From Nibricoccus sp. (GTDB lineage Bacteria; Verrucomicrobiota; Verrucomicrobiia; Opitutales; Opitutaceae): a stretch of DNA of 64,000 nucleotides. Positions 23,107 through 42,578 of this stretch are shown here, one piece after another. The DNA lies in the NCBI GenBank assembly GCA_047602425.1, contig JASGHG010000001.1:3392001-3456000 (forward strand), written 5' to 3'. The position numbers and the translations under genes were made by a program. Positions within the stretch are counted from its first letter, which is position 1. Each line of letters opens with the position of its first letter. The notes beneath the pieces are model-generated. The model did not search any database. It was not told the DNA's origin and saw only the letters and a list, made by a program, of their open reading frames with translations.

Positions 23107-25497
23107 TTAGCCGAGGGTGGCGACGATTTTGCTGCCGTCTTTTAGCTTTTCGAGCGGAATGAAGTTTCCGTCGATCGACTTGCCGTCGACGGTGAGGGAC
23201 TTCACGCCTTTGCAGATATTGGATGGGTTCTTGACTTCGATCTTCAGGGTTTTGCCACGGAAGACGCGGGTCATTTTGAAACCGGGCCAGGCCTTGGGAA
23301 TGCACGGGTCGATGCGCAGGCCGTCGACTTCCGGGCGGACGCCGAGGATCCATTGCAGCGCAGTATGGTGGCTCCACGAGGCGGTGCCGGAGAGCCACGG
23401 AACACGGGATTTGCCGGCGTTGCGGTTGCAGGTCGCGTAGGTCGTCTGGCAGTGGACGTACGGCTCGATCTCGCGGACTTCCGCGCGGGTGTTGTACGCC
23501 GACGGCATGAAGGCGCGGTAGTATTCGTAGGCCTGGTCGCCGTTGCCGAGCAGACATTCGGCGATGACGGCCCAGCTTTGCGTGTGGCAGAAGATGCCGG
23601 CGTTTTCCTTGATGCCGTGGTTGTAGATTACACCGCCCATGATGGTCGGGGGCGTGTTGGTGAACGGCGGCGCACTGAGCATGATGCCGTAGGGCGTGGC
23701 GAGGTCGCGCTTGAGGGCGTCCATCGCGCTGCGGCCCTGCGTGGGCGCGGCGGCGCCGGACATGACGGCGAAGACCTGCGTATTGATGTAGACCTTTCCT
23801 TCGGTTTCGGTTTTCGAACCGTAGCGATGGCCGTCGGGCCCGATCGCCCAGAGGAACCATTCGCCGTCCCAGGCGGCCTTCTGGATATTGGCTTCGAGCT
23901 TGGTCTGCTCGGCGCGGGCCGAAGTGGCCTCGGCAGGGAGGCCGAGTTTTTCGGCGATCTCGGCGTATTTGAAAAGACCATACCGGAGCTGGAAGGCGAC
24001 CATGACGGACTCGCCGTTGTAGCCCATCTTCACGCAGTCGTTCCAGTCGGCGTGGAGGCCGCAGGGCAAACCGTTGGCACCGGAACGTTCGAGATTGAAC
24101 TCGAGGGCGCGGCGCATGTGTCCGAAGACCGTGGCTTCGCCTTGGTCGGCGTAGGGGAGAACCTTTTTGTAGAAATCGAAGTCCCCGGTTTCCGCCACGT
24201 AGTCAGGGATCGAATTGAAGAACCACTGGCAATCGTCCGAACGATACTCTTCGCGCTTGGGCGGCTGCATCTTGCCTGGCGTGTGGTTAAACGGCTGCAC
24301 GACGGGCATGGCGCCGCCGTTGGAAACCTGACCGGTGAGCATGAGCTCGAGGCGGCCGCGAATGCCGTCCTTGAGATGCGGCATGGCGCCGAGGAAATCC
24401 TGCACGGTGTCGCGGTAGCCGAGGCCGTCGCGTTCGCCGTTGTAGATCATCGAGGCGTGGCGCGACCAGGCGTAGGTGATGAGAGCGTTGTAGCCGCCCC
24501 AGACATTGGCCATGGAGTCGAACTCGGCGTCGGGTGTCTCCACCTTCACGCCGGCGAGCAGGCCGTGCCAGTGGGCCTTGAGCTTGGTGAATTCCTCTTC
24601 GCAGCGGGCGGAGTTGCCGAACTCGGCGATCGTGGCAAAGCCGTGTGTATCCGGCTGGCCCATACCGAGCATGACGATGAGCTCGCGGGTTTCGCCGGGA
24701 GCGAGTTCGAGGTCAGCCTTGAACGTGCCGCAACCGTTTTCGCCCTCGGCGAGGAAGTTGGAGCACTTGCCGTCAATCACGCCCTGCGGATTGGCGTAGG
24801 TGTTGTAGACGGAGCCGAAGAAGTTCTCGCGGACCGTCTCATAGCCAGCGATCGGCGCGCCGGTGAGTGTCATCCACGTGCGGCCCGCGGAGCCGAGGAA
24901 ATTGTTTGGATCAAACTTGTAGTACGGGTGCATCGCCATGCCGAGCACGCCGTTGTTCATCTCGGCCTTGATGATGAACTGAGAATACTGGAGATTCGTC
25001 AGGTCGTTGGGCATGTTCCAACAGCTGGCGAACTCGCAGTAGGTGAAGACGGAGATCTTGCGCGGCTTCTTGGACTTGTTGGTGACCTTCAGGCGCCAGT
25101 ATTCGAACGTCTGGCCGAGTGGGACGAAGTAGGTGCTCTCGGTCTCGATCGCGGCGTAGCGCGATTCGATGACGGTGTAGGCGGTGCCGTGACGGCAGGT
25201 GCTCTTGTACTTGGAGAGTGGTTTGCCAACGGGCTGCCAGGAGGAGGACCAGTAGTCGCCATCCTCGTTGTCACGGAGGTAGAAATAGCGTCCGGGCTGG
25301 TCCATTGGCACGGAGTTGGAGCGCGAGCGGAGGAAGCGGCCGTTGAGGGCGCTCTTGTAGAAGCTGTAGCCGCCGGCGCTGTTGGTGATGATGGCGCCGT
25401 ACTCGGTTGAGCCGAGGTAATTACTCCAAGGACGCGGAGTGTCGGGACGCGTGATGACGTATTCCTTGGCTTTGTCGTCGAAATGGCCGAATTGCAT
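23107..25497 (-). CDS. GH94 glycoside phosphorylase (chitobiose/cellodextrin phosphorylase-like; substrate uncertain)
   Basis: GHFDD...PWSNYLG, GLGYRDTVQD, SDD, ADWND, KENAGIFCH and WLSGT motifs. Confidence 0.9.
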   Translation of the reverse strand: MQFGHFDDKAKEYVITRPDTPRPWSNYLGSTEYGAIITNSAGGYSFYKSALNGRFLRSRSNSVPMDQPGRYFYLRDNEDGDYWSSSWQPVGKPLSKYKSTCRHGTAYTVIESRYAAIETESTYFVPLGQTFEYWRLKVTNKSKKPRKISVFTYCEFASCWNMPNDLTNLQYSQFIIKAEMNNGVLGMAMHPYYKFDPNNFLGSAGRTWMTLTGAPIAGYETVRENFFGSVYNTYANPQGVIDGKCSNFLAEGENGCGTFKADLELAPGETRELIVMLGMGQPDTHGFATIAEFGNSARCEEEFTKLKAHWHGLLAGVKVETPDAEFDSMANVWGGYNALITYAWSRHASMIYNGERDGLGYRDTVQDFLGAMPHLKDGIRGRLELMLTGQVSNGGAMPVVQPFNHTPGKMQPPKREEYRSDDCQWFFNSIPDYVAETGDFDFYKKVLPYADQGEATVFGHMRRALEFNLERSGANGLPCGLHADWNDCVKMGYNGESVMVAFQLRYGLFKYAEIAEKLGLPAEATSARAEQTKLEANIQKAAWDGEWFLWAIGPDGHRYGSKTETEGKVYINTQVFAVMSGAAAPTQGRSAMDALKRDLATPYGIMLSAPPFTNTPPTIMGGVIYNHGIKENAGIFCHTQSWAVIAECLLGNGDQAYEYYRAFMPSAYNTRAEVREIEPYVHCQTTYATCNRNAGKSRVPWLSGTASWSHHTALQWILGVRPEVDGLRIDPCIPKAWPGFKMTRVFRGKTLKIEVKNPSNICKGVKSLTVDGKSIDGNFIPLEKLKDGSKIVATLG

Positions 25498-25543
25498 GGT
25501 CGGTAGGGAAAAGTTAGGGTTTTAAAAAGGACGAGACCGCAAG

Positions 25544-25587
25544 GTGAGCCGCGGTAAACGCGGCGCGCCCGGCGGTCGCGCCCTACC
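25544..25587 (-). repeat. GTAG-type REP-like element
   Basis: Minus strand reads GGTAGGGCGCGACCGCCGGGCGCGCCGCGTTTACCGCGGC: GTAG tetranucleotide followed by a GC-rich imperfect hairpin. Confidence 0.7.
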
Positions 25588-25598
25588 TGTGAATGTGT

Positions 25599-28046
25599 TT
25601 AGCCGAGGGCGACTTCGACTTTGACGTTGGTCGTGCCGGCGGCGGGCGTGGGGATGAGGTTGCCCTCTACCTTCACACCGTCGACGACGAGCGACTTCAC
25701 GCCTTTGCTCTTACCCTTCGGGTTTTTGATCTCGATCTGGTAAGTGACGCCACGGAACTTTCGAGTCACGCTGTAGCTCTTCCATTTCTTCGAGATGCAC
25801 GGATCGATGCGCAGGCCATCGAAGTCGGGACGCACGCCGAGGATGTATTGGCTGGCGACGACGAACGACCAGGCGCCGGTGCCGGTGAGCCAGGAGTTTT
25901 TGCCTTCGCCCTGCTTAGGTGCGAACTGCGAGGACGTCATCTGGGCGTAGACGTAGGGCTCGGAGCGATACACGTCGTGGTCGGGTTTGGCGGCGGGGCA
26001 GATGCTAAGGTAGTACTCAAGGGCCTTGTCGCCTTCGCCGAACATCGTCCAACCGATGTGAATCCAGGTGTTGTTGTGCGAGAACACGCCGGCGTTTTCC
26101 TTATAACCAGGAGGATAGGAGGAAACTTCGCCGAGTTCGAGGTGGTACTCGGAGTACGGCGGATATTGGAGCGCGCAGCCCTTGTCGGACGTGTAGAGAT
26201 ATTTATCGACTGCCTTGAGCGCTTTCAGGGCGCGGCCGTTGTCCTGACCGGCGCCGCCGAGCACGCACCACGCCTGGCTCTCGATGAAGATCTTGCCTTC
26301 CTTGCAGGACTTGGAGCCGACGGGGTTGCTGAAGTTGTCGAACGCGCGGGTGTACCAGTCGCCGTCCCAAGCTTGGCTCTCGACGATGGCTAGCATTTCG
26401 GCGTGGTAGCCGTCGATGCGGGCGGCTTCGTTTTCCTGTTTCAGGAAGCGGTAGCAGGCGGCGAGGTCCTTGCAGGCGTAGAGGAAGAGGCCGGCGATCA
26501 TAACCGACTCGGCGACGTCGCCCTTGGCCTTGTTGGCGGTGTTCTGGAAGGACTCGTTGGGCTGGTCGGAGAAGCAGTTGAGGTTAAGACAGTCGTTCCA
26601 GTCGGCGCGGCCGATGAGCGGCAGATTGTGCGGGCCCTTGTTGCGGCGCGTGTAGGCGATGGAAATTTCCAGGTGGTCGCGCAGCGTGTGCTTCGAGCCG
26701 GGGATGTCGGCGCAGCCGATCTGCTCGTCGAGGATCGTGGCGTCGCCGGTCTCGCGGATGTACGAGCAGGTCGAGAGGATCAGCCAGAGCGGGTCATCGT
26801 TGAAGCCGGAGCCGGCGTCGGCGTTGCCCTTCTTGGTGAGCGGCTGGTATTGGTGATAGCAAGTGCCGTCGGAAAGCTGTGTGGCGGCGATGTCGAGGAT
26901 GCGCTGGCGAGCGCGGTCGGGAAGGAGGTGGACGAAACCGAGCACGTCCTGGTTGGAGTCGCGGAAGCCCATGCCGCGGCCGATGCCGGTTTCGTAGCCG
27001 GAGGCGGAGCGGGAGAGGTTGAACGTGGCCATGACCTGCGCCTGATTCCAGGTGTTGACCATGCGGGCGAGGGGCTCGCTGGGGACGTTGGAACTTTGGT
27101 AGATGGAGAGCAGTTCGTTCCAGCGCTGCTTGACGGACGCGAACGCGGCGTCGACGGCGGCGAGGTCGGAGAACTTGGCGAGGATTTCGCGGCCCTTCGT
27201 CTTGTTCATCACGAACGGGGCGTCGAACTTGGGTAGATCGCCCTGGTCAATGTAGGCGAGGACGAAGGCGAACGTCTCCTCCTGACCGGGCTTGAGCGAG
27301 AGATTGATCTGGTGGGCGCCGCAGGGATTCCAGCCGTAGGCGCGAGAGTTGGTGCACTTGCCGGCGAGGACGGCCTTCGGGTCGCCGAGGCTGTTGTGCA
27401 CGCCGACGAAGGCGTCGCGTGAGGTGTCGTAGCCGTCGATTTTGCGCGTGCAGCCGAAGAGGGCGTAGTGGTTGCGACGCTCGCGGTACTCGGTCTTGTG
27501 GTAGATTGCGCTGCCCTCGATCTCGACTTCGCCGATCGAGTAGGTGCGCTGGTAGTTCGTCATGTCGTTAAGCGCCTCGAAGGAGCAGAATTCGACGAAC
27601 GAAAAGAGACTGAGCTTCTGGGGTTTCTTGGTCTTGTTACGAACCGAAACTTTCCAAACCTCCACATTTTGCTGCGGCGGGACGAACATCAGTTGTTCGA
27701 CCTCGATGCCGTCCTTGCGGCCGGTGATGCGGGAGTAGCCGAGGCCGTGGCGGCACTCGAACTTGTCGAGCTTGGTGCGGGTGGGCTTCCAGCCGGGGTT
27801 CCAGATCGACTTACCCTGCTTCACATAGAGGAAGCGGCCGTCGCTATCCATCGGGTTGTTGTTGTAGCGATAACGCGTGAGACGACGGAGCTTGGCGTCC
27901 TTCCAGAAAGTGTAACCGCCTGCGGTCTGCGTGACCATGCCGAAGAACTCGTCCTGGCCGAGGTAATTGAGCCACGGCAAGGGAGTGTCGGGGCGAGTAA
28001 TGACAAATTCGCGGTTGGCGTCGTCGAAGTGACCGTAGTTGGACAT
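25599..28046 (-). CDS. GH94 cellobiose phosphorylase-like protein
   Basis: RRLTRYRYNN, TEYRERRNH, SRSAS-ETGIGRGMGFRDSNQD, DWNDCLNLNCFS, YPPGYKENA and WLTGT motifs. Start MSNYGHFDD at 28046. Confidence 0.92.
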   Translation of the reverse strand: MSNYGHFDDANREFVITRPDTPLPWLNYLGQDEFFGMVTQTAGGYTFWKDAKLRRLTRYRYNNNPMDSDGRFLYVKQGKSIWNPGWKPTRTKLDKFECRHGLGYSRITGRKDGIEVEQLMFVPPQQNVEVWKVSVRNKTKKPQKLSLFSFVEFCSFEALNDMTNYQRTYSIGEVEIEGSAIYHKTEYRERRNHYALFGCTRKIDGYDTSRDAFVGVHNSLGDPKAVLAGKCTNSRAYGWNPCGAHQINLSLKPGQEETFAFVLAYIDQGDLPKFDAPFVMNKTKGREILAKFSDLAAVDAAFASVKQRWNELLSIYQSSNVPSEPLARMVNTWNQAQVMATFNLSRSASGYETGIGRGMGFRDSNQDVLGFVHLLPDRARQRILDIAATQLSDGTCYHQYQPLTKKGNADAGSGFNDDPLWLILSTCSYIRETGDATILDEQIGCADIPGSKHTLRDHLEISIAYTRRNKGPHNLPLIGRADWNDCLNLNCFSDQPNESFQNTANKAKGDVAESVMIAGLFLYACKDLAACYRFLKQENEAARIDGYHAEMLAIVESQAWDGDWYTRAFDNFSNPVGSKSCKEGKIFIESQAWCVLGGAGQDNGRALKALKAVDKYLYTSDKGCALQYPPYSEYHLELGEVSSYPPGYKENAGVFSHNNTWIHIGWTMFGEGDKALEYYLSICPAAKPDHDVYRSEPYVYAQMTSSQFAPKQGEGKNSWLTGTGAWSFVVASQYILGVRPDFDGLRIDPCISKKWKSYSVTRKFRGVTYQIEIKNPKGKSKGVKSLVVDGVKVEGNLIPTPAAGTTNVKVEVALG

Positions 28047-28104
28047 AGGAGGTGGTTGTGAAGAGGGAAAAATTCTGGAAAGAGGAAGAAAAGAAATCGG
28101 CGAA

Positions 28105-29016
28105 TTAGCGGGCGGGCGGGGTGGCCTCGATGTAAATCGTGCTGGAGCAGTGACCGGTCGCATCGCCCGTGAGCGTGGGAGTCAGTTGTTCGAGTTCGGC
28201 GAGATCGTGAGATTTATTTCCAACCCAGACCTGGCTGAGATAGCCGTGGTCGGGAGCGTCATTTGTGGCGACGGTCGAGGGTCCGGGAATGACGGAAAGT
28301 TTCCAGCCCCGGGGTCGATCGATGGATAGCGTCTGCGGATCAAACCCGAGTTTTACCTGCTGGATTTCGCTGCGAATCGTGGCGGTGTCGCCATTGATCG
28401 CGATGGACGGATGTGGCAACTGGATTGGTTTTTCGGGATCGACCATCCGGGCGACGACGAGTCCGGCGGGAACTTCGGCTGTTTTCTTCAGGTGCGTCGT
28501 GATCACGAAAGGCGTATTGACGGCGACAACGTGCAAACCGAAATACGCTTTGCCATTGTCCTTCCAGCGCACCGTGCAACGAAGACGCTTGCCATCCCAG
28601 GCATATTCGCGGGTCAGCGCGGGATAGTCTTTATTGACGTGGGCATGGTGAAGGGTGAGCACGCCCTCTTTGGCGGTGGCGACTTGGATGGAGGCATATT
28701 CCCACTCGGTCGGGGGCGGCCAGACCCAGCGATGTTGCGGTCCGAGCCAGAAACGGTGGCCGCCCTGATTGGGCCACGGATTGTTTGGCGACGGGCGGAG
28801 AAGCGGGAGCGGGGCGTTTATGAGGTTAAGCGAACCATCCTCCGCACCCAAATAGATCAGCCGGGAGCGGGCCTCGGTAACGATGGCGCGGACGCCCTGC
28901 TGGGTGGAGGTCCAGGCGGCTTCGCCGTGCCAGTCGGATTTTTCCCAAGTCGCAGTGGTCGCTAGGGACGCGAGAGACGTCATGATAAAAAGGAAAAATG
29001 GAGCGACACCTTTCAA
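28105..29016 (-). CDS. Exported hypothetical protein (DUF4380/mutarotase-like beta-sandwich; tentative)
   Basis: Signal-peptide-like N-terminus; GGHRFWLGPQ...WPPP and ELEQL motifs; co-oriented upstream of the GH94 pair. Confidence 0.6.
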   Translation of the reverse strand: MKGVAPFFLFIMTSLASLATTATWEKSDWHGEAAWTSTQQGVRAIVTEARSRLIYLGAEDGSLNLINAPLPLLRPSPNNPWPNQGGHRFWLGPQHRWVWPPPTEWEYASIQVATAKEGVLTLHHAHVNKDYPALTREYAWDGKRLRCTVRWKDNGKAYFGLHVVAVNTPFVITTHLKKTAEVPAGLVVARMVDPEKPIQLPHPSIAINGDTATIRSEIQQVKLGFDPQTLSIDRPRGWKLSVIPGPSTVATNDAPDHGYLSQVWVGNKSHDLAELEQLTPTLTGDATGHCSSTIYIEATPPAR

Positions 29017-29805: not shown

Positions 29806-30525
29806 TTATTTTTCCGCCGCTGGCGGCACGGGCATGCGAGAGAAGACGAGCGTCGCGGCCAGTTCGGTGGCTTCACTGAGATGAACGCGGCTGGTGTCGA
29901 TCACCAAGTCGTACGCGTTGGGATCGGCAATGTTGGCGTTAAAATGAGTCCGTACGTAGCGTTCGCGGGCGAGATCGCGCTTGGCGTTATAGCCAGTGGC
30001 CTCGGTTTCATCCATTTGTTGCAAGCGCGCGATATGCTTTGCGCGGTGTGGGACGGGGCCAACGAGGCGCACATGCACGCCGTGAGAGATTCCGGCGGTG
30101 GCGAAATTTGCTCCACGACCGACGAAGATCGCGAAGCCGCCGCGGGCGAGGCGACGCATGAGCTCGTTGGCTTTTTGCACGAGGTCCCAGAGATTCGGAT
30201 GCAGGCCGACGAGCTCGCCGACGGCCGCGGAAATTTCGGGAATTTTGTCCTCGGGGAGAAAACGCGCGAGGCGGGGTGAAAGTTGGTGCGATTGCAACAT
30301 CTCCTCGATGAGATTGCCGGTGTAGACGGTCCATTGAGGCGCGTCGGGAAGATGAGCATTGAGGCGGAGCGCGAGAGCACGGGCGAGAGTGGATCCGCCG
30401 GCGCCGGATTCGCGCGAGATGGTGACGAAGGGACCTTCGGCTCTGCTGGCCCAAGGGACGCCGGTGTTGCCTATATGTGCATGCAAATAGGCGCCGGCCG
30501 TTTCCAAACCGGGGTGCGTTTTCAT
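29806..30525 (-). CDS. Cytidylate kinase-like family protein
   Basis: VTISRESGAGG P-loop variant, IFVGRGANF, HVRLVGP and YDLVIDT motifs. Confidence 0.9.
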   Translation of the reverse strand: MKTHPGLETAGAYLHAHIGNTGVPWASRAEGPFVTISRESGAGGSTLARALALRLNAHLPDAPQWTVYTGNLIEEMLQSHQLSPRLARFLPEDKIPEISAAVGELVGLHPNLWDLVQKANELMRRLARGGFAIFVGRGANFATAGISHGVHVRLVGPVPHRAKHIARLQQMDETEATGYNAKRDLARERYVRTHFNANIADPNAYDLVIDTSRVHLSEATELAATLVFSRMPVPPAAEK

Positions 30526-30771: not shown

Positions 30772-32826
30772 TTGTCCGATCACCCGCCCATACTCGCCAA
30801 AGACACCAACGCCTCCGTTGCGAAGGCGGAGCCCTGCGGCGTGTTGCTCGAACTGGTCAGCGAAAAATTTTACCGGGATAATCCGTTTCGGCAACTCGGC
30901 CTGGCGGTCCTGGCGAGCGCGCGTGAAGTGACGAAGCGGGTCGACGAATTGAAGCTGGCAGCGGAGTTTGGCATTGCGCAGCCCGACTGGTCCTTTGGTC
31001 CCGAGCAGGCGTTGACCGCCGAACAAATTCGCCTGGCCGCAACCGCACTCAAGGAGCCCACCGAGCGACTGGTTTGGGAATTATTTTGGTTTTGGCCGGA
31101 AAATTTCCCCGAGGACGAAGGTGAAGACCCGGCGTTGGCCCACCTCGCACGGGGAGAGACGGATCATGCGATCGAAATCTGGCAGGGTGCTGCGATGCAT
31201 GGGCAACTCGCCGCGTTGCACAACCTCGCGGTTTATTACCACGTGCAGGCGCTGGAGATGGAGCAACAAGAGTCGCCGCCGGAGGATCAACTGGTTAATC
31301 TTTGGTTCAAGTCGCTGCGTTTCTGGGAAAAAATTGGCGATGATGAAGGGTTGTGGGCGCGGATGCGCTCGCGCGTGAAACGCATGGCCGACGCCCGTGT
31401 GACCGACACCTTCGTCGCTCAGATGCGCACGACATTGGCCGGCGCACTAGCCAAGATATGCGCCTCGCTCGCGCTCACTCACGCGCAAAAAGGCTTGGTC
31501 AACCGTGCGTCTTTGCACGCTGCGCTGGTGACACATATCCATGGTGACAACGCCGGTGCCCGGCACGCGTTGGAAGAATATTGTTCGCCCATTGCGCGTC
31601 GGATCGACGCGCGGACCAATGAGGCGAAAAACCGGCTGGCGACGGCCGCCAGCAGTGCCGCGCTGGACGAGGCTTGGGCGCTGTTGCGTCAGTGCAACGA
31701 AGATCTGCGGCATATCGAACTGCTTTGCGGGCGCACGGCGGATTACTTTGTGGAGGTATCGAATGGTTTGGTGGGCACGGCGCTCGACGCTGTGGTGACC
31801 TATCAGCGCGAGACGCAGGATGATTTTCGCTGCCTGCCGGTGCTTGTGCACCTGCTCGACATGGAAGCGCTGCCCGAATTGAAAAATCGCGTGCAGGAGA
31901 CCTTTCAAACCGTCTACGGCAATGCCCTGATGCGCGAATCGCGTCCGCCGATGGAAACCTCGGATGAAATGGTTGAAGCGTTGGCCACCTCGGATGACCT
32001 GCGGGCTTTTCAATTGATCGTGGACCAATTGGTTCCCGCGGTCGAACAACTGGATCTGGGGCCGGCGGCGCGGCAAATGTACGCGGCTCGCGTGGCGCGT
32101 TTACTCAAGGACCTTGCGCTGGCGGCAGGCATGGAACGTGACGACATCGATCTGGCGCTGCGGGCCTTTGATGTCGCCTTGACGTTGCCGGTGGGCGACA
32201 GCTTGGGCGAAGCGCTGGCGAGTGACCGTGCGCAGCTCCAGCGCGATTTCGAGACGCGCAAAGAGAAGGAGTTGCAGGTTGAAGCCGAAGGTGTGCGGTT
32301 GATCGTGAATCGTTATGGCATTTGCTTAAACGACCAGTGGGTCACGCCCGTCGAGGTCGCGGGTCTGCGTCACGGCATGCTCGCACCGGGTGAGGAAGGT
32401 GGGGAGGGCACCTATGTCATCGCGTGGCGCTCTTACGCGGGACAAGAATTTGAGTTGAACGCCAGCAATTTGCTCCTGCCGTCCTCGTATGTGGAAGAAC
32501 ACTACATGCGGATCCTCGACTCGATTTATCATTTTATCGTGCCTGGATTGGTTAATCGTTTGTCAAACGACATCCGCGAAGGTCGGGAAGTTGTGCTCGG
32601 CGCGACACCCTTGCGTTTGGAAGGCATGTACTTGGCGGGAGGAGGCTCGCGTTTTTGGAAAAAAGACGAACCAGTTTCCTACACGAAGCTGCAAACAGAG
32701 ATTGAAGGCGGCCTTTTGATTGTATCCAGTAAGGAAAACCCCCGGCAGTCTGAAAGTCATGACGTCGCCCTTGTGTGGAACGCCGTGATTTTTAGCTACG
32801 TGCTGGAGGCCCTTACTCGAGAATAG
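30772..32826 (+). CDS. J-domain-like / TPR-like helical protein with a beta-rich C-terminal region
   Basis: N-terminus NPFRQLGL..ASAREV..K...QPD...AATALKEPTER resembles a J domain; TPR-like ALHNLAVYYH. Start uncertain (TTG 30772 or GTG 30841). Confidence 0.7.
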   Translation: MSDHPPILAKDTNASVAKAEPCGVLLELVSEKFYRDNPFRQLGLAVLASAREVTKRVDELKLAAEFGIAQPDWSFGPEQALTAEQIRLAATALKEPTERLVWELFWFWPENFPEDEGEDPALAHLARGETDHAIEIWQGAAMHGQLAALHNLAVYYHVQALEMEQQESPPEDQLVNLWFKSLRFWEKIGDDEGLWARMRSRVKRMADARVTDTFVAQMRTTLAGALAKICASLALTHAQKGLVNRASLHAALVTHIHGDNAGARHALEEYCSPIARRIDARTNEAKNRLATAASSAALDEAWALLRQCNEDLRHIELLCGRTADYFVEVSNGLVGTALDAVVTYQRETQDDFRCLPVLVHLLDMEALPELKNRVQETFQTVYGNALMRESRPPMETSDEMVEALATSDDLRAFQLIVDQLVPAVEQLDLGPAARQMYAARVARLLKDLALAAGMERDDIDLALRAFDVALTLPVGDSLGEALASDRAQLQRDFETRKEKELQVEAEGVRLIVNRYGICLNDQWVTPVEVAGLRHGMLAPGEEGGEGTYVIAWRSYAGQEFELNASNLLLPSSYVEEHYMRILDSIYHFIVPGLVNRLSNDIREGREVVLGATPLRLEGMYLAGGGSRFWKKDEPVSYTKLQTEIEGGLLIVSSKENPRQSESHDVALVWNAVIFSYVLEALTRE

Positions 32827-32828
32827 AC

Positions 32829-33491
32829 ATGCAACATTCCCTGCTGGCCCAGATCTTCGCCCGTGATCCGCGGAAGCTGGCGCGTTTTCCCGACGTGCCG
32901 CTCGATCAGGCTTTAGTGACGTTGCAACACTTGTTGTCCACGCTCGAGGAATTGAGTTCTCTGTCGGTCCCTCCGCCTCCTCCCGTGCTCGCCACGATGG
33001 GCAGCATGCCGCCGGTCGTGCCGGTCGAGGAAACTGCTCCGATTGAGGCACCGGCCCCAGCGCCGGCGCCCATCCCTGAGCCGGCCGCTGTGGCCGCTCC
33101 GGCGCCTGCCGTTTCGAGCGACGCATATCTGGATGAGTTCGGTGGCTCGATGGCGGCACTTGCGACGCAAGTCTGGCGCGCCCGCAACCGCATCATTGAT
33201 CCAGAAACCGGCGAGCCGCGCGAAGAAATGCGCCGCCTGCATCGGCATGTTGAAGGCGCGTTCGAAGCGCTGCGCGAAATGGGCCTTGTGATCAATGACT
33301 GGCTGAAGCAGCCCTACGATTCGGGCCTGCCTGTGAAGGTCCTCACTTTTCAACCCGCATCTGAAGTCCAGCGAGATACTGTGTTGGAAGCCACACGCCC
33401 GACCGTGATTTGGAAAGAACGCCTGCTACAAATGGGCGAAGTCATTGTCGGTATACCCCCAAGCCAAAGCACAGAAGCACCACCGCCATAA
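32829..33491 (+). CDS. GrpE-like nucleotide exchange factor (truncated, Pro-rich N-terminus)
   Basis: LREMGL...QPYDSG...TVLEATRPTVIWKERLLQMGEVIVG aligns by eye to the GrpE head domain. Confidence 0.7.
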   Translation: MQHSLLAQIFARDPRKLARFPDVPLDQALVTLQHLLSTLEELSSLSVPPPPPVLATMGSMPPVVPVEETAPIEAPAPAPAPIPEPAAVAAPAPAVSSDAYLDEFGGSMAALATQVWRARNRIIDPETGEPREEMRRLHRHVEGAFEALREMGLVINDWLKQPYDSGLPVKVLTFQPASEVQRDTVLEATRPTVIWKERLLQMGEVIVGIPPSQSTEAPPP

Positions 33492-36140
33492 ATGAGCCGA
33501 ACGACCATTGATTACGGAATTGATCTGGGAACGACCAATAGTGCCATTGCCGTCATTGCCGGCACCGGCACCGAGATCATCAAGAACAACGTCGACGCCG
33601 ACATCACGCCCTCCGCTGTCTACATAAACCGTTCGGGCAACCTCTGGGTTGGCCAGAATGCCAAGTCGAAGCTGGCCGACGAGCGCGCGGAGGACGACGT
33701 GTTTATCGAATTCAAGCGGCGCATGGGCACGGGCTTTGAGTATGCTTTTCGCGCCAGCGGCCGTCATATGAAGCCGGAGGAACTCTCGGCCGAGGTGCTC
33801 AAATCGCTTCGCAGTGACGTCACGCAAAAAAAAGGCGAACACATTTCCGCCGCCGTGCTCACCGTCCCCGCCGCCTTCGAACTTCACCAATGTGAAGCGA
33901 CCAAGCGCGCGGCCGAACTCGCGGGTTTTCGCCAGGCATGTCTCGTGCAGGAACCGGTCGCCGCTGCGCTCGCCTACGGTTACCAGAAGGTCGACGCCAA
34001 GGCCTATTGGCTGGTTTTCGACTTTGGTGGCGGCACATTCGACGCTGCGCTCATCCGCTCCGAGGAAGGCAGCATGGTCGTGGCCAATCACGGTGGCGAC
34101 AACTTCCTCGGCGGCTCCGACATCGACTGGGCCATTGTCGAACAAATTCTCCTTCCTAAAGTCCGCCAGGAATTCAACCTTCCTGATTTCAAGCGCGGCA
34201 ACGCCACGTTTAAACACGATTTCATGCGCCTGAAAGCCGCGGCCGAAACCGCGAAGATCGAGCTTTCGCGCAAGGAAGGCACTTTCCTCGAAGCCACGCT
34301 TCGCCGCGCCGGCAACGAAACCGTCACCTTCGAAACCGAGCTCTCGCGCAACGACGTCATCCGAGCCGCCGAACCTGCTGTCATGAAGGCGGTCAACATC
34401 GGCCTGCGCGTTCTCGCGGAGAAAGGCCTCTCGCCTTCCGCCGTTGAAAAACTGATCTTTGTCGGTGGCCCCACGCTCGCGCCTTACTTCCGTGACATGG
34501 TTAAGGAACGCATGCATATCCCGTGCGACCTGAGCATGGATCCGCTTACAGTCGTGGCACGCGGTGCGGCGATTTTTGCCAGCACGCAAAAAATTCTTGC
34601 CGCCAAGGACATCAAGCCGACCGCCCCGGCTTCTACCACCGCAACTGCTCCCACCGGCAAAACCGCGGCTCCTGTTCCGGGCGCTCCGGCGGGCCAAGTC
34701 CAACCCGGCCAGGCTGCTTCTGCGAACGCACCCGTCGGCGCGACTCCATCCTCCGCTTCCTCGGCGCCGATCCCAGTCGTGCCCGCGCCTTACTCCCTTG
34801 AGCTCATCTACAAGCCGGTCGGCTCCGACCCTGAGCCCATTGTCGGCGGCCGCACCACGGCTCCCGCCGGAGCGCCGCTCGCTGGCTGTACCATTGAGTT
34901 CGTCAACCAGGCCACCAAGTGGCGCAGCGGCAAGATCACGCTCAAGGAAAACGGCGCCTTCCAGTTCAATGCCCGCGCCGAGAAAGGCATCGAGAACATC
35001 TTCCTCATCGAGTATCGCGACCCGAAGGGTACGCTCTGTCCGACCGAGCCGAAACAATTCAAATACACCATGGGCGTGGTGGTCGAAGAACAACCGATCA
35101 TCAACAACCTCGGCGTCGCCATGGCCGACAACAAGGTCGGCGTTCACTTCACTAAAGGGCAGGGACTTCCCGCCAAACACACTCGCACGTACCGTACTTC
35201 GCTTGGACTGCGCCGGGGAGAAACCGGTACCGTCGTTCGCATTCCCATCGTTGAGGGCAACCGCGAGCTCGCCGACCGCAACGTTCTGATCGGCACTGTT
35301 GACATCACGCCCGACAAGATCGACCGCGATCTTCCCGCTGGCAGCGAGGTTGAAGTCAGCCTGCATATGGATACTTCGCGACTTCTCACCGTTGTCGCAT
35401 ACGTGCCACTGCTCGATGAAGAATTTCCGACCAAAATCGAACTCGGCGGCAAAGTTCGTCAGCCCGACCTCAACGTGCTTCGTCAGGAATGGAACCGCGA
35501 ACTTGCCCGCCTCGGCGACCTCAAGGCCGGCATCGAACAGGCCCGCGATGTCGAATCGATGGAGGTGCTCCATGCGCTCGAAGCTTCGCCGCTCGTGAAG
35601 AAACTGCTCGAGCGTTTTGCCTCCGAAGGTTCGGACTTCGATGCGTTGCTCCAGTCCGATCGCGATATCCTTGAGTTCAAGGTTACCCTCGATGCCATTG
35701 CCGCCCGTGTGGCCTGGCCGACCGCCGTCAAGGAAGCCGAAATCTGGCTCTCGGACCTCGACAAACTCGTGGCGAAGCAAGGCACTGCTGACGAAAAGAA
35801 ACGCGCCCGCCTGCTGCGCGAGCAGATCGAGTCCATCATCGCCGGGAAAAATCAAGATCGCCTTAAGAAAAAGATGGAGGAAATCTCCGACGTTTACTCA
35901 TCCATTCTCTATCGCCAGGACGCGTTCTGGGTCGATTACTTCGAAACCCTTTCAAAAGGATTGAACCAAATGCGCGATCCCGCCGCGGCCGAGAAAATCA
36001 TTGCCGAAGGCCGTGGCCACGCCGCCGCCTCCAATCTGCCGGATTTGAAGAATGTTGTTTATCAATTGCAGGATTTGCTCCCGAAGAAGGTCGTGGAGCA
36101 GGCCCGTCGCGGCTATGGCTCCGGGCTTCTGACTTCCTGA
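33492..36140 (+). CDS. Non-canonical Hsp70 family chaperone with an inserted domain
   Basis: GIDLGTTNS, TPSAV, TVPAAF, EPVAAALAYG, DFGGGTFD, GDNFLGG, AETAKIELS, VGG and VARGAA motifs; SBD-like C-terminal half. Confidence 0.95.
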   Translation: MSRTTIDYGIDLGTTNSAIAVIAGTGTEIIKNNVDADITPSAVYINRSGNLWVGQNAKSKLADERAEDDVFIEFKRRMGTGFEYAFRASGRHMKPEELSAEVLKSLRSDVTQKKGEHISAAVLTVPAAFELHQCEATKRAAELAGFRQACLVQEPVAAALAYGYQKVDAKAYWLVFDFGGGTFDAALIRSEEGSMVVANHGGDNFLGGSDIDWAIVEQILLPKVRQEFNLPDFKRGNATFKHDFMRLKAAAETAKIELSRKEGTFLEATLRRAGNETVTFETELSRNDVIRAAEPAVMKAVNIGLRVLAEKGLSPSAVEKLIFVGGPTLAPYFRDMVKERMHIPCDLSMDPLTVVARGAAIFASTQKILAAKDIKPTAPASTTATAPTGKTAAPVPGAPAGQVQPGQAASANAPVGATPSSASSAPIPVVPAPYSLELIYKPVGSDPEPIVGGRTTAPAGAPLAGCTIEFVNQATKWRSGKITLKENGAFQFNARAEKGIENIFLIEYRDPKGTLCPTEPKQFKYTMGVVVEEQPIINNLGVAMADNKVGVHFTKGQGLPAKHTRTYRTSLGLRRGETGTVVRIPIVEGNRELADRNVLIGTVDITPDKIDRDLPAGSEVEVSLHMDTSRLLTVVAYVPLLDEEFPTKIELGGKVRQPDLNVLRQEWNRELARLGDLKAGIEQARDVESMEVLHALEASPLVKKLLERFASEGSDFDALLQSDRDILEFKVTLDAIAARVAWPTAVKEAEIWLSDLDKLVAKQGTADEKKRARLLREQIESIIAGKNQDRLKKKMEEISDVYSSILYRQDAFWVDYFETLSKGLNQMRDPAAAEKIIAEGRGHAAASNLPDLKNVVYQLQDLLPKKVVEQARRGYGSGLLTS

Positions 36141-36144
36141 TTTT

Positions 36145-36660
36145 ATGGCCGCCCCCACCGGAGAATCGATCGCCACCTGCCTTCGCCTCGGCAAATCGCT
36201 TGGCCTGGCGCGGCAAGGTCGTCTGCGCGAAGCGCAGCAGTTGCTCGCGGCCGAAGGCACGCTGCCCGAAAGCTCGCTTGAATTGCATGCCCTCGCGTCG
36301 CTGGCTACCGGCGACGGCGATTATGCCCGCGCCCAGCGCCTCTGGCGCCTGCTCCTCCAGCGCGAACCCGGCCACGCCGAAGCCAAGCGCATGATCGACG
36401 CGATCGAACTCTGGATAACGCGTCCCTCGTGGATGAATTACCTGCCGATCTTTGGCATTCTGGCCAGCGTGGTACTTGTGCTCGGGACGGTTGCCTGGAT
36501 GATGACCGACACGGCGCAACCAGCCACCCCCGCCAAACAGCCCGCGCCACGGCCGGCGCAAGTGGCTCCGGCCTACACGCCATCGGCTCCGCCCCCGACG
36601 GTTAATTTTTCATCACCGCCGCGTAAAACCGAACAACCAGGCCGCAATCGGACTCGGTGA
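36145..36660 (+). CDS. TPR-containing single-pass membrane protein
   Basis: TPR-like GRLREAQQLL...GDYARAQRLWRLLLQREPGHAEA; TM segment LPIFGILASVVLVLGTVAWMM; Pro-rich tail. Confidence 0.75.
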   Translation: MAAPTGESIATCLRLGKSLGLARQGRLREAQQLLAAEGTLPESSLELHALASLATGDGDYARAQRLWRLLLQREPGHAEAKRMIDAIELWITRPSWMNYLPIFGILASVVLVLGTVAWMMTDTAQPATPAKQPAPRPAQVAPAYTPSAPPPTVNFSSPPRKTEQPGRNRTR

Positions 36661-36711: not shown

Positions 36712-37071
36712 ATGGAAGATCCCGCCAAGTTCCAAGCCGCTGCCTTTGAAAAGATGGCGCTTGGTTCGTCACAGCGGCATGTATTTCTCTGTGTCGGGCC
36801 TGATTGTTGCAGCACGGAGCAAGGGCTGGCCACCTGGGACGTATTGAAAAAGAAAATCGCCGAGGCAGGTGTGCCAGTGATGCGGACCAAGGCGGCCTGT
36901 TTGCGCATCTGCCGTGGCGGACCGTGGATGGTGGTTTATCCCGACGGTGTCTGGTACGGCGGCGTCACGCCCGAGCGTTGTGACCGCATTGTACGCGAAC
37001 ATTTGCAACAAGGCCGCGTCATCGACGAATGGGTGGCCGCCCGACGTCCGCTGCCCGATCAAATGAGCTAG
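36712..37071 (+). CDS. Thioredoxin-like [2Fe-2S] ferredoxin
   Basis: HVFLC...CC...CLRICRGGPWMVVYPDGVWY motif. Confidence 0.9.
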   Translation: MEDPAKFQAAAFEKMALGSSQRHVFLCVGPDCCSTEQGLATWDVLKKKIAEAGVPVMRTKAACLRICRGGPWMVVYPDGVWYGGVTPERCDRIVREHLQQGRVIDEWVAARRPLPDQMS

Positions 37072-40349: not shown

Positions 40350-42578
40350 TTATGACTTGGCGGGAGCAGGTGCGGCGGGTGGCGGTGTGGCAGGTGGTTG
40401 CGCAGCCGGCGGCGGCGGGTCATTGCGCTCTTCCCAGAAATAGCGGGCTTTGCCGGCTGCGTCCTTGTGCTGGTTGGCGTCGTGGCGGATCCAGAAGGCA
40501 CCGGCAGCAATGGCGAGAAGTACGAGAAGGAAGATGGTCTCACGACGGCGTTTTTTGGCTTCTTTATCCTCGTACGGATCGTCGAGCGAACGTTTGGATC
40601 CGGGCGGTAGTTTGGCAATGTCGGTCAGGGCGGTGCCGAAAGGAATATTAATTTTCACGCGCCCGTTGATGGCCCAGCCGTTGGCGTCGAGGATGGGGCC
40701 GAGGGTGCGCTGGCGGAGCTTCAGCCAGGCTATGATCATCGACGGCATCGAGATCAGGAACATGACGGCAAGAAAGACGAGCGGCACCTGCCAGCCTGGC
40801 ATGCCTTTGAAAAAGCCGAGGAAATAACCAAAGGCGGTGGTTAACGCACCGAAGGCGACACCCAGGGCGGCGACGGCGCCGACGTCGATTTTTTTGGCGG
40901 GGTCAGCCGGTTTAGCCCGGTCGAGGTTGGTGGTTTTTTCCGCGGCGGTGGCAAGTTTGCTGTGAGAGGCGGCCTCGGCGGCGGCGGCACGTTTCGCGAT
41001 CTGCTCCTCAATCATGCGCAGGAACTTCTTGTACGGCGACCAGAAGGCCTGGCGAATGCTAATCGGGTTGTCGACGATGCTGGTAATCACGGCGTCCCAA
41101 TCGCGACCTTGCCGGTCGTAGAAAATGCCATGGCGGCCGGCAAAGAGATAGTCGGAATCGCCTTGGGTGAAACACGCCGCAATCGTCATGGGTGAGCTTC
41201 CCGGACGGGAACACGCGCAGTAGGCGATGTAGGTTTTGCTCATGGCCGCGAGCGCATTGGGCGCGTCGACCCGGATGCACAACTCGGTGGAGCGGCTGTC
41301 GAGATAGAGCGTGCCTGCCTGGAAAACGGCGAGTTTGTCGGGCGAATACAGATCGCCGAAATTCACGAAATTGTGCAGCAATGCGCGCAAATCGCGGTGA
41401 TAACGCACGAGCCGGTCGACGTCGCTGATGGCCTGAAATTCGGGCGCGATGGCTTTGTCCTTGGCGATGAGTTCGTCGAGAAGGGCGCGGCCCTTGCCCT
41501 CGGCAATGGCCTTGAGACGTTCATGCCCGAGTTTTTCGCAGGCCGTCGCTGGTTTATCGGCGGTGGATTTCTCGTAGGCGGCGAAACGCGCGCAAAGTTG
41601 GAGCCAGTCAGTTTCAGTCAGAGATGTTTTGGAGGCGCCAAGCACGGGAGCCACGGCGTCCTGTTGAAGCGCGGAAAGGCGGGCGGCCCAGGCCGGATTA
41701 ATGCCTTCGGTGAGCGGTAGCGGCTTCCCAGCTGCGATGGTGGCGAGGGGAAAATTGCTCACTTCGTCTGCGGTGATCTTCATGTCCTTCGCGGCGATCT
41801 CCAGATAGTCGTTTTCGGAACGATTGAGGGCTGCGATGGATCGCGGATCGAAGGCGGCCAGGCGGCAGCGGGCAAAATAATCATCGACCTTGGCGCGTAC
41901 GGCCTTGAGGACCTCGAAAGCCACCGCCGTATTGTCGCCGAGGAAAGTGACCTCGGGCGAGGTGCCGCGATCCACCCAGGCGAGATATGTGGCAAGTTCC
42001 TTGAAGAACGTGTCGATTTTTTCCGCAGTTACACCTGCGGAGCCGGTTTGATCGGCCACGCCGCCAACGCAGGCGACAATGTCGGCGATGAGGGCTTTGA
42101 CCTCGTCGCTGTCGGTGGCCTCGGGCGGAATCACGCCATCGCCGTTTATGGGGTTGGCGGACAGAATGCGTTTGGTGTCGCTGCTATCGTCAATCGAAAT
42201 AGTGGTGGCGTTTGGTTTGCCAAGGCTGTGCAAAGTCTGCCGTGCGGAGGCGAGCAGAATTTTGCCCTCGGGCGTCTGGTCGTTGATTGCGGCCAGCGGA
42301 AGAGTCTCGGAGCCTTTGAGGAGATCGCCCATGTCTTTGAGCCGAAGGGAAGTCCATTTGATGGCACGGAGTAGTTCGGGTACGCGAATACGGCCATCTT
42401 TGTCGTCGTCGATGAGGGCTAGCGTTTTTTCATCGAGTTCCAAGCCCTTCACCGGACAACTGAGGGCGACCCAAAGTTTCTGGTCGAGATTTTCGAGATT
42501 GAGAATGTCGGCTCCTGTTTCGAGCGCGACTTGATCGAGGCCGCCGGTGCGAAAAAATTTCCAGTGATGTTGTGCCAT
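40350..42578 (-). CDS. Hypothetical membrane protein with an EF-hand-like loop
   Basis: 742-aa ORF. DDDKDGRIRVPE loop, NGDGVI, and 2-3 C-terminal TM helices. Confidence 0.8.
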   Translation of the reverse strand: MAQHHWKFFRTGGLDQVALETGADILNLENLDQKLWVALSCPVKGLELDEKTLALIDDDKDGRIRVPELLRAIKWTSLRLKDMGDLLKGSETLPLAAINDQTPEGKILLASARQTLHSLGKPNATTISIDDSSDTKRILSANPINGDGVIPPEATDSDEVKALIADIVACVGGVADQTGSAGVTAEKIDTFFKELATYLAWVDRGTSPEVTFLGDNTAVAFEVLKAVRAKVDDYFARCRLAAFDPRSIAALNRSENDYLEIAAKDMKITADEVSNFPLATIAAGKPLPLTEGINPAWAARLSALQQDAVAPVLGASKTSLTETDWLQLCARFAAYEKSTADKPATACEKLGHERLKAIAEGKGRALLDELIAKDKAIAPEFQAISDVDRLVRYHRDLRALLHNFVNFGDLYSPDKLAVFQAGTLYLDSRSTELCIRVDAPNALAAMSKTYIAYCACSRPGSSPMTIAACFTQGDSDYLFAGRHGIFYDRQGRDWDAVITSIVDNPISIRQAFWSPYKKFLRMIEEQIAKRAAAAEAASHSKLATAAEKTTNLDRAKPADPAKKIDVGAVAALGVAFGALTTAFGYFLGFFKGMPGWQVPLVFLAVMFLISMPSMIIAWLKLRQRTLGPILDANGWAINGRVKINIPFGTALTDIAKLPPGSKRSLDDPYEDKEAKKRRRETIFLLVLLAIAAGAFWIRHDANQHKDAAGKARYFWEERNDPPPPAAQPPATPPPAAPAPAKS

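Follow-up and report, generated by a model that had tools for sequence, protein, structure and literature searches.

Operon layout and housekeeping background

The question raised by this locus is whether four adjacent genes of a Nibricoccus sp. (Opitutaceae, Verrucomicrobiota) encode an Hsp70 system of their own, and what such a system may be used for. The genes lie within a window of 64,000 nt (contig JASGHG010000001.1, positions 3,392,001 to 3,456,000), to which all coordinates given here refer, and are labelled A to D in 5′ to 3′ order (J-like, GrpE-like, Hsp70, and tetratricopeptide repeat protein with a transmembrane segment, TPR-TM). We found that a larger cassette exists of which this operon is a reduced form, that it encodes a catalytically complete Hsp70 with J-like, GrpE-like and TPR-TM partners, and that the Hsp70 and the J-like protein have jointly lost their trigger residues. 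As described in the initial annotation, the four open reading frames (ORFs) are co-oriented, with gaps of 2, 0 and 4 bp:

30772..32826, + strand: gene A, 684 aa, TTG start
32829..33491, + strand: gene B, 220 aa
33492..36140, + strand: gene C, 882 aa
36145..36660, + strand: gene D, 171 aa

The genome containing the window is a single contig (99.97% complete), and encodes a canonical DnaK elsewhere (884 bits), as well as a housekeeping grpE-dnaJ pair; nothing else in this genome matched the GrpE or J models. The operon is thus additional to the housekeeping system, and the possibility that C is the only DnaK of this genome was ruled out. Frameshifted or shadow ORFs were ruled out by the presence of homologues and by the substitution rates, with nonsynonymous rates (dN) of 0.09-0.50 versus synonymous rates (dS) of at least 0.94, the latter being near saturation, for all four genes in five pairwise comparisons per gene. 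The GC content of the operon is 0.60 versus 0.57 for the genome, and that of third codon positions (GC3) is 0.65-0.72 versus 0.74 for dnaK; these host-like values, together with syntenic flanks, ruled out a recent genomic island.

Catalytic and trigger residues of the Hsp70

Protein C matched the Pfam HSP70 family with 242.8 bits, and gave a predicted structure with a local distance difference test score (pLDDT) of 89 and a template modelling score (pTM) of 0.84. The protein is made up of the following parts:

residues 5-366, + strand: Hsp70 nucleotide-binding domain (NBD)
residues 375-430, + strand: strain-specific Pro/Ala spacer, from the alignment
residues 433-527 (34788..35072), + strand: inserted all-beta domain of ~95 aa, between NBD and interdomain linker
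residues 538-650, + strand: beta part of the Hsp70 substrate-binding domain (SBD-beta), preceded by the VVVEE linker
residues 655-865, + strand: extended helical region, followed by a semi-conserved GYGS tail

C therefore has both the linker and the beta-sandwich substrate-binding domain by which the Hsp70 superfamily is recognised. The equivalents of the catalytic residues D8, K70, E171 and T199 were invariant in 82/82 family Hsp70s, bearing out the earlier claim of intact ATPase motifs. The J-contact and allosteric residues of DnaK have been replaced in the same 82 sequences, with R167 kept in 1/82 and both Q378 and D148 in 0/82, a Cys at the R151 position in 82/82, and the Y145 position likewise substituted; E. 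coli HscA and HscC retain R167, Q378, R151 and D148. The extra domain reported previously was confirmed as a beta domain that is present family-wide (mean column conservation 0.58), but about 50 aa of the additional length belong to the strain-specific spacer, which measures 68 residues in the window protein versus 14-22 in 81 other sequences. Column conservation was 0.63 for the SBD-beta versus 0.69 for the NBD.

A phylogenetic tree of the NBD (61 rows), a check proposed with the initial annotation, placed the family apart from DnaK, HscA and HscC with 100/100 support, with a long-branch warning for HscC and for a row from a Pseudomonas plasmid. Canonical DnaK was rejected as identity of C on a score of 241.5 bits versus the NCBIfam prok_dnaK cut-off of 822.55 bits and on the replaced contact residues, and HscA on a score of 207.5 versus a cut-off of 708.55 bits, the retention of K55-E267 and the separate tree branch. 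HscC was rejected on length (typically ~830 aa in the family versus 550-580 aa), on the replacement of R151, R167, D148 and Q378, and on its separate branch, to which the long-branch caveat applies.

J-like and GrpE-like partners

The predicted structure of A (pLDDT 87) begins with a small unit of helices, continues as an alpha-solenoid and ends in an alpha/beta domain:

residues ~33-104 (30868..31083), + strand: J-like domain, a helical N-terminal unit lacking the His-Pro-Asp (HPD) motif
residues 120-499, + strand: alpha-solenoid, from the predicted model
residues 501-682, + strand: C-terminal alpha/beta domain, PH-like/DUF6585-like by structural likeness

Helices were predicted in the N-terminal unit at residues 38-42, 50-66, 83-94 and 96-104. 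A profile built from 85 such units matched 11 PDB sequences, 10 of them J-domain proteins, with weak E-values (0.06-6), and Pfam DnaJ matched 5/85 of the J-like domains below cut-off (best E 0.0051). The HPD motif by which J-domain proteins are recognised was found in 0/85, and the positions of H33-P34-D35 are occupied by E65-F66-G67 (EFG) in the window protein and by ELG in the family consensus. The helical protein with a J-like N-terminus described earlier is thus supported by weak but specific profile matches, but lacks HPD. Replacement of H or D in this motif abolished Hsp70 stimulation in every system tested, according to a review (PMC8215388). Since trigger contact residues are missing from both the J-like protein and the Hsp70, the operon likely encodes a private, membrane-bound machine for protein remodelling with non-standard switching.

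The C-terminal domain of A, which was missing from the initial annotation, resembles DUF6585/PH-like clusters, with a likeness below the naming threshold of the search tool. Fold searches with the whole protein returned generic solenoid matches only, which do not bear on the J and PH parts. The start of A is uncertain because many homologues begin ~20 residues later, and residues 1-22 were predicted to be disordered.

The GrpE-like part of protein B is located as follows:

residues ~101-210, + strand: GrpE-like helical pair and beta head, from weak profile matches

The best PDB match of the C-terminal part of B was GrpE (4ANI 131-211, weak E of 0.029), residues 116-193 of E. coli GrpE were matched in a 4-sequence test (E 0.0004), and Pfam GrpE matched 9/18 B members below cut-off (best E 0.0022), with the window protein unmatched. 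The long N-terminal coiled-coil dimer of GrpE is replaced in B by a short helix, conserved at Opitutaceae loci only, and a variable Pro/Ala spacer. The GrpE head of the initial annotation is supported at the level of weak but specific matches to the C-terminal 110 residues; its Pro-rich stalk is variable and unconserved. Judged from its sequence, B is likely a nucleotide exchange factor.

Relation of the operon to a wider cassette

A search with the A profile yielded 3117 clusters (50% identity) at E≤0.001 and 941 at 1e-30, the best 150 clusters being listed, and a scan of species genomes confirmed 136 stretches, of which the best 80 of 136 were kept, in 74 loci. Removal of four contig duplicates and transfer of one locus to the Opitutaceae set left 69 distant loci. 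A fuller cassette was recognised in about ten phyla, consisting of a Ser/Thr kinase, J-like/solenoid protein, GrpE-like protein, Hsp70, TPR-TM protein (with or without OmpA domain) and Clp AAA+/ClpN, and the family occurs in Verrucomicrobiota, Lentisphaeraceae, Planctomycetota, Chloroflexota, Acidobacteriota, Syntrophaceae/Smithella, Nitrospirota, Bacteroidota, Ignavibacteriales, Actinomycetota, Gammaproteobacteria and Eubacteriales. Among the distant loci with enough flanking sequence, a dedicated kinase of ~367 aa was present in 52/59, B and C together in 48/51, the GrpE-like gene in 49/51 and D in 36/47. A Clp-family gene was found in 22/43, a count that includes a few unrelated Clp fragments; it encodes either the N-domain alone or a full two-ring AAA+ protein, and 7/7 of the full-length proteins contain an I/VGF loop, which we take to be of the ClpP-binding type. 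Sigma-factor genes were located upstream in 9 loci.

At the 19 Opitutaceae loci we detected B and C in 16/16 and D in 14/14, with the kinase in 0/15, the Clp gene in 0/13 and the OmpA domain in 0/17. There was no kinase orthologue in the window genome, nor, using one query, in 26 relatives, where the best matches were large generic kinases with 33-36% identity. The four-gene operon is a reduced form of the larger cassette, and so is not the self-contained novelty that was initially proposed; the simplest reading, and a likely one, is that Opitutaceae have lost the kinase, the Clp gene and the OmpA domain. In the NBD tree, the eight Opitutaceae rows formed one clade (100/100) inside a 32-row group (95/97) that holds 21 kinase-bearing rows.

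Protein D of the window shows two features:

residues ~10-92, + strand: TPR-like helices, with matches below cut-off
residues ~99-120, + strand: single hydrophobic segment, predicted from sequence, then a Pro-rich tail

The previously reported TPR protein with one TM helix is therefore supported as regards the hydrophobic segment, but its TPR matches are only sub-cut-off. An OmpA/MotB-like tail was detected on 17/41 distant D ORFs versus 0/17 from Opitutaceae, using a profile seeded by seven of the 17 positive ORFs; Pfam OmpA matched 8/13 of the distant D proteins tested, with 5 above cut-off. No stand-alone OmpA-like partner was found in the window genome.

The core of A is constant to about residue 390-490, and its termini are swapped among relatives for Zn-finger-plus-TM, TM-coiled-coil, PH-like, Sel1, HEAT, receiver, SH3 or cyclophilin domains. 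Crude classification of 70 distant A ORFs gave 28 of the Zn-finger type, 11 TM-coiled-coil, 7 PH-like, 22 other and 2 cut sequences; several loci carry two A genes as tandem paralogues, and the window protein represents a soluble PH-type version. We consider A likely to be a client-targeting co-chaperone. In a predicted complex of C(1-655) with A(22-345), the score was 0.44 versus 0.00 for the best of three controls, with runs agreeing in at least 81% of contacts and a partner pLDDT of at least 82. This is weak support, as the mark used is reached by 116/157 solved complexes and 2/215 mismatches, with only 18/157 solved complexes and both passing mismatches at ≤0.60.

Several variants of the cassette were observed. 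Three loci from Actinomadura and Thermomonospora (L072, L098, L100) have the order B-C-D-A, an OmpA-type D and no dedicated kinase, and represent a second kinase-less lineage, in cultured strains that lend themselves to genetics. Genes for GYF_2-TM-coiled-coil proteins lie upstream of the kinase at L033, L036, L037, L047 and L049, often beside a sigma-factor gene, and the extracytoplasmic ends of these proteins look like the C-terminal parts of certain A variants. At L073, L078 and L092 the operon contains an additional Hsp70 gene that is divergent or truncated, and at L054:14749-15888 a ClpN-like domain is fused to an adenylate/guanylate cyclase domain, which replaces the AAA+ rings. A kinase-A fusion on a short contig (P0058) was discarded as it looks like a chimera. 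A more distant sister triad was found on Pseudomonas plasmid NZ_CP070507.1 (L026:8022-13002), with a TPR-fused A with DUF6585-like end, a 117-aa mini-GrpE and an 833-aa Hsp70 whose 145-167 positions are substituted in the same manner.

Distribution and neighbourhood in Opitutaceae

Protein A was present in 33/201 genomes of the family Opitutaceae, and its J-like segment in 11/401 genomes of the phylum. The order A-B-C-D, the conservation of which the initial annotation had proposed to check, was kept in 17/20 fetched Opitutaceae loci; of the remaining three, one is cut off within C by the end of its contig and two have only a solitary, divergent A paralogue. These paralogues lack B, C and D (L024:6578-8614 and L025, in genomes G099 and G054), and both genomes also carry the full operon; the paralogues possibly serve as additional adaptors in trans. 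In two relatives (L012, L022), gene A is split.

The genes next to the operon are:

36712-37071, + strand: thioredoxin-like 2Fe-2S ferredoxin-like gene, 51 bp downstream of D
29806-30525, - strand: cytidylate-kinase-like gene (PF13189), divergent from the operon

The ferredoxin-like gene is co-oriented with the operon, at either end, in 8 Opitutaceae relatives and is possibly a lineage-specific accessory gene, and the cytidylate-kinase-like gene flanks the operon in 6 relatives, with a second copy elsewhere in the window genome. Since both flanks recur in relatives, and flanks are syntenic across several Opitutaceae genera, this is a settled chromosomal locus in Opitutaceae. Further away, the window encodes a 742-aa protein without Pfam match (40350-42578, - strand), which has a Pro-rich end and, close to its C-terminus, two stretches predicted to be hydrophobic, and two tandem genes (23107-28163, - strand; 796 and 854 aa) that by eye resemble glycoside phosphorylases.

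Comparison with known systems

The family resembles DnaK-DnaJ-GrpE in its Hsp70 NBD with all catalytic residues, its linker and SBD-beta and its J-fold-like and GrpE-like partners, and the Clp AAA+ gene of the fuller cassette recalls the ClpB/ClpA-type AAA+ partners of that system. It differs from DnaK in its NBD (only 36-37% identical, and far below DnaK model cut-offs), its inserted beta domain, its longer helical C-terminus and the replacement of HPD, R167, Q378, R151 and D148, and from the triad in a GrpE-like protein without long coiled coil and in the addition of a TPR-TM partner and a kinase. In the HscA-HscB pair, too, a dedicated Hsp70 has a J-protein of its own and serves a narrow set of clients, and a 2Fe-2S-type ferredoxin-like gene adjoins the operon in some Opitutaceae; however, HscA keeps the allosteric and J-contact residues and lacks cleft salt bridges and a nucleotide exchange factor, and no isc genes recur near the family operon.

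E. coli HscC with DjlB/DjlC is also a specialised, sporadic and membrane-linked Hsp70, but has 550-580 aa, keeps R151, R167, D148 and Q378 and is reported not to need GrpE, whereas the family has ~830 aa, its own GrpE-like gene and a separate branch. The partners of HscC are HPD-type J-proteins. HscC works with membrane-anchored J-proteins and has the same NBD lobe I deletion as the family (PMC8215388). Furthermore, GAP1-N2 neighbourhoods hold Hsp70, GrpE and DnaJ/TPR gene sets (Kaur et al. 2020, PMC7159879), with kinases in a sister theme and an occasional second Hsp70 gene, as at L073, L078 and L092 here. The contrast drawn initially with HscC and other dedicated Hsp70 systems was therefore overstated. 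GAP1-N2 systems, which occur in actinobacteria and firmicutes, have GTPases and FNIII proteins at their centre (PMC7159879); clustering of 763 neighbours of our family, made without a GAP1 profile, gave no recurring GTPase or FNIII-repeat family. We found no description of the family in the literature, in a search that did not extend to the supplements of PMC7159879 and PMC13580251, which could list it. The Hsp70 subsystem is real and conserved, and apparently undescribed.

Proposed function and alternative explanations

We consider the chances evenly balanced that the operon encodes a dedicated, membrane-tethered, client-remodelling Hsp70 with a private cycle at the inner membrane, insulated from DnaJ. 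In such a cycle, A would use its solenoid and variable terminal domain to recognise a specific client and would likely dock on C, which would grip the client in the retained SBD-beta; an A-specific contact would take the place of HPD-R167 in gating hydrolysis by C and would thereby insulate C from the housekeeping DnaJ, while B would release ADP from C and the complex would be kept at the membrane by D. In the fuller cassette, the dedicated Ser/Thr kinase may switch the cycle, the OmpA domain on D may tie the complex to peptidoglycan, and the Clp AAA+ protein with its ClpP-binding-type loop may unfold and degrade the client; the Opitutaceae form, having likely lost these three, would run as a remodelling or holding module. 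The separate housekeeping triad, conserved gene order, J- and GrpE-like identities and catalytic residues agree with the private chaperone or switch for a specific client put forward initially, but its anti-phage option is not supported by the neighbouring genes.

A number of observations weigh against a client-remodelling Hsp70. The J and GrpE matches are below curated cut-offs, and loss of R151 breaks allostery in DnaK, so that C may not cycle on substrates. The docked state of C is an AlphaFold prediction that may follow solved Hsp70s, and the weak pass of the C-A complex, for which no interface was returned, may reflect likeness to solved J-Hsp70 complexes. D is absent at 11/47 distant loci and a membrane anchor is therefore not universal, while the GYGS tail of C was rejected as ligand of the D TPR, as there was no co-occurrence (motif in 28/49 loci with D and 5/10 without). 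Finally, the patchy occurrence and variable A termini fit a conflict system equally well.

In the latter, A variants would sense an invader or envelope breach, the Hsp70 would serve as a switch with a threshold and the response would come from the kinase or the Clp protease, which we think is somewhat unlikely. Next to its patchy spread and the constant core, swapped termini and tandem paralogues of A, such a system would fit the sister triad on a conjugative Pseudomonas plasmid among toxin-antitoxin and insertion sequence genes, the weak match of one D to the ZorB/MotB model (E 5.7e-8), and the overlap of phyla with those rich in NTP-dependent conflict systems (PMC7159879); Hsp70-like domains act as switches in defence fusions, according to PMC12642450 and bioRxiv 10.64898/2026.10.19.760177. 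However, PADLOC 2.0.0 models matched none of A, B and D, and C only over a stretch of 30 residues (E 0.0024), and 87 flanking genes (one per side, 100-600 aa) gave 11 PADLOC matches, of which about 4-5 are real-looking defence genes (no background set was used) and most are housekeeping homologues (HIT, spermidine synthase, IstB, PP2C, phospholipase D), the matches at Opitutaceae loci being limited to two HIT proteins. The defence-island location suggested as a check was thus not seen, and no nuclease, TIR or pore-type effector recurred among the 763 neighbours of 91 loci. Viral contigs gave no confirmed member out of 39 pattern matches, the family was present in 1/72,556 plasmids (B had no plasmid match), and the four-gene window form, with its syntenic flanks and host-like GC and GC3, has no candidate effector.

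Alternatively, C could be an ATP-bound, non-cycling switch or scaffold, following an Hsp110-like logic, in envelope signalling with the kinase and extracytoplasmic function (ECF) sigma factors. Such a role would suit the replacement of R151, D148, Y145, R167 and Q378, the domain inserted ahead of the linker and the frequent kinase and upstream sigma-factor genes, and non-canonical roles have been proposed for DnaK derivatives (PMC13580251). We nevertheless regard it as unlikely, as all catalytic residues are invariant, the SBD-beta is about as conserved as most of the protein, the near-universal GrpE-like gene implies nucleotide turnover, and the window genome has no kinase orthologue. That the operon is a decaying remnant of the six-gene cassette is very improbable: in its favour, neither the kinase nor the Clp gene nor the OmpA domain was detected, two relatives have a split A and lone divergent A paralogues exist, but dN is well below dS for all four genes, the four-gene order is intact across many genera, and the kinase-less forms are one well-supported clade (100/100) with its own conserved B N-terminal motif.

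Implications for Hsp70 biology

Eukaryotic endoplasmic reticulum-associated degradation (ERAD) combines Hsp70, Sel1 repeats, AAA+ extraction and proteolysis. By analogy, the fuller cassette joins Hsp70 with A variants that carry Sel1 fusions, with membrane anchors and with an AAA+ of the protease-coupled type, but is without ubiquitin or a channel component. A bolder reading, to which we give a minority chance, is that the family is a fourth cross-phylum Hsp70 branch with the HPD trigger replaced on both sides, the full form of which is a kinase-gated, peptidoglycan-tethered, ERAD-like Hsp70-Clp system for envelope surveillance. If so, the full apparatus would extract selected proteins, whether the cell's own or delivered by phage, from the envelope and destroy them, with swappable sensor domains sitting on the J-like subunit.

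With this family, one class of the unexplained 'DnaK derivatives' (PMC13580251) gains a defined set of genes. The family combines a catalytically complete Hsp70 with a J-like partner, yet HPD and the contact residues have been lost together, across about ten phyla. It is thereby a natural test of how Hsp70 hydrolysis is triggered and of how cross-talk between parallel Hsp70 systems is avoided, for which the four-gene Opitutaceae form is a minimal version for reconstitution.

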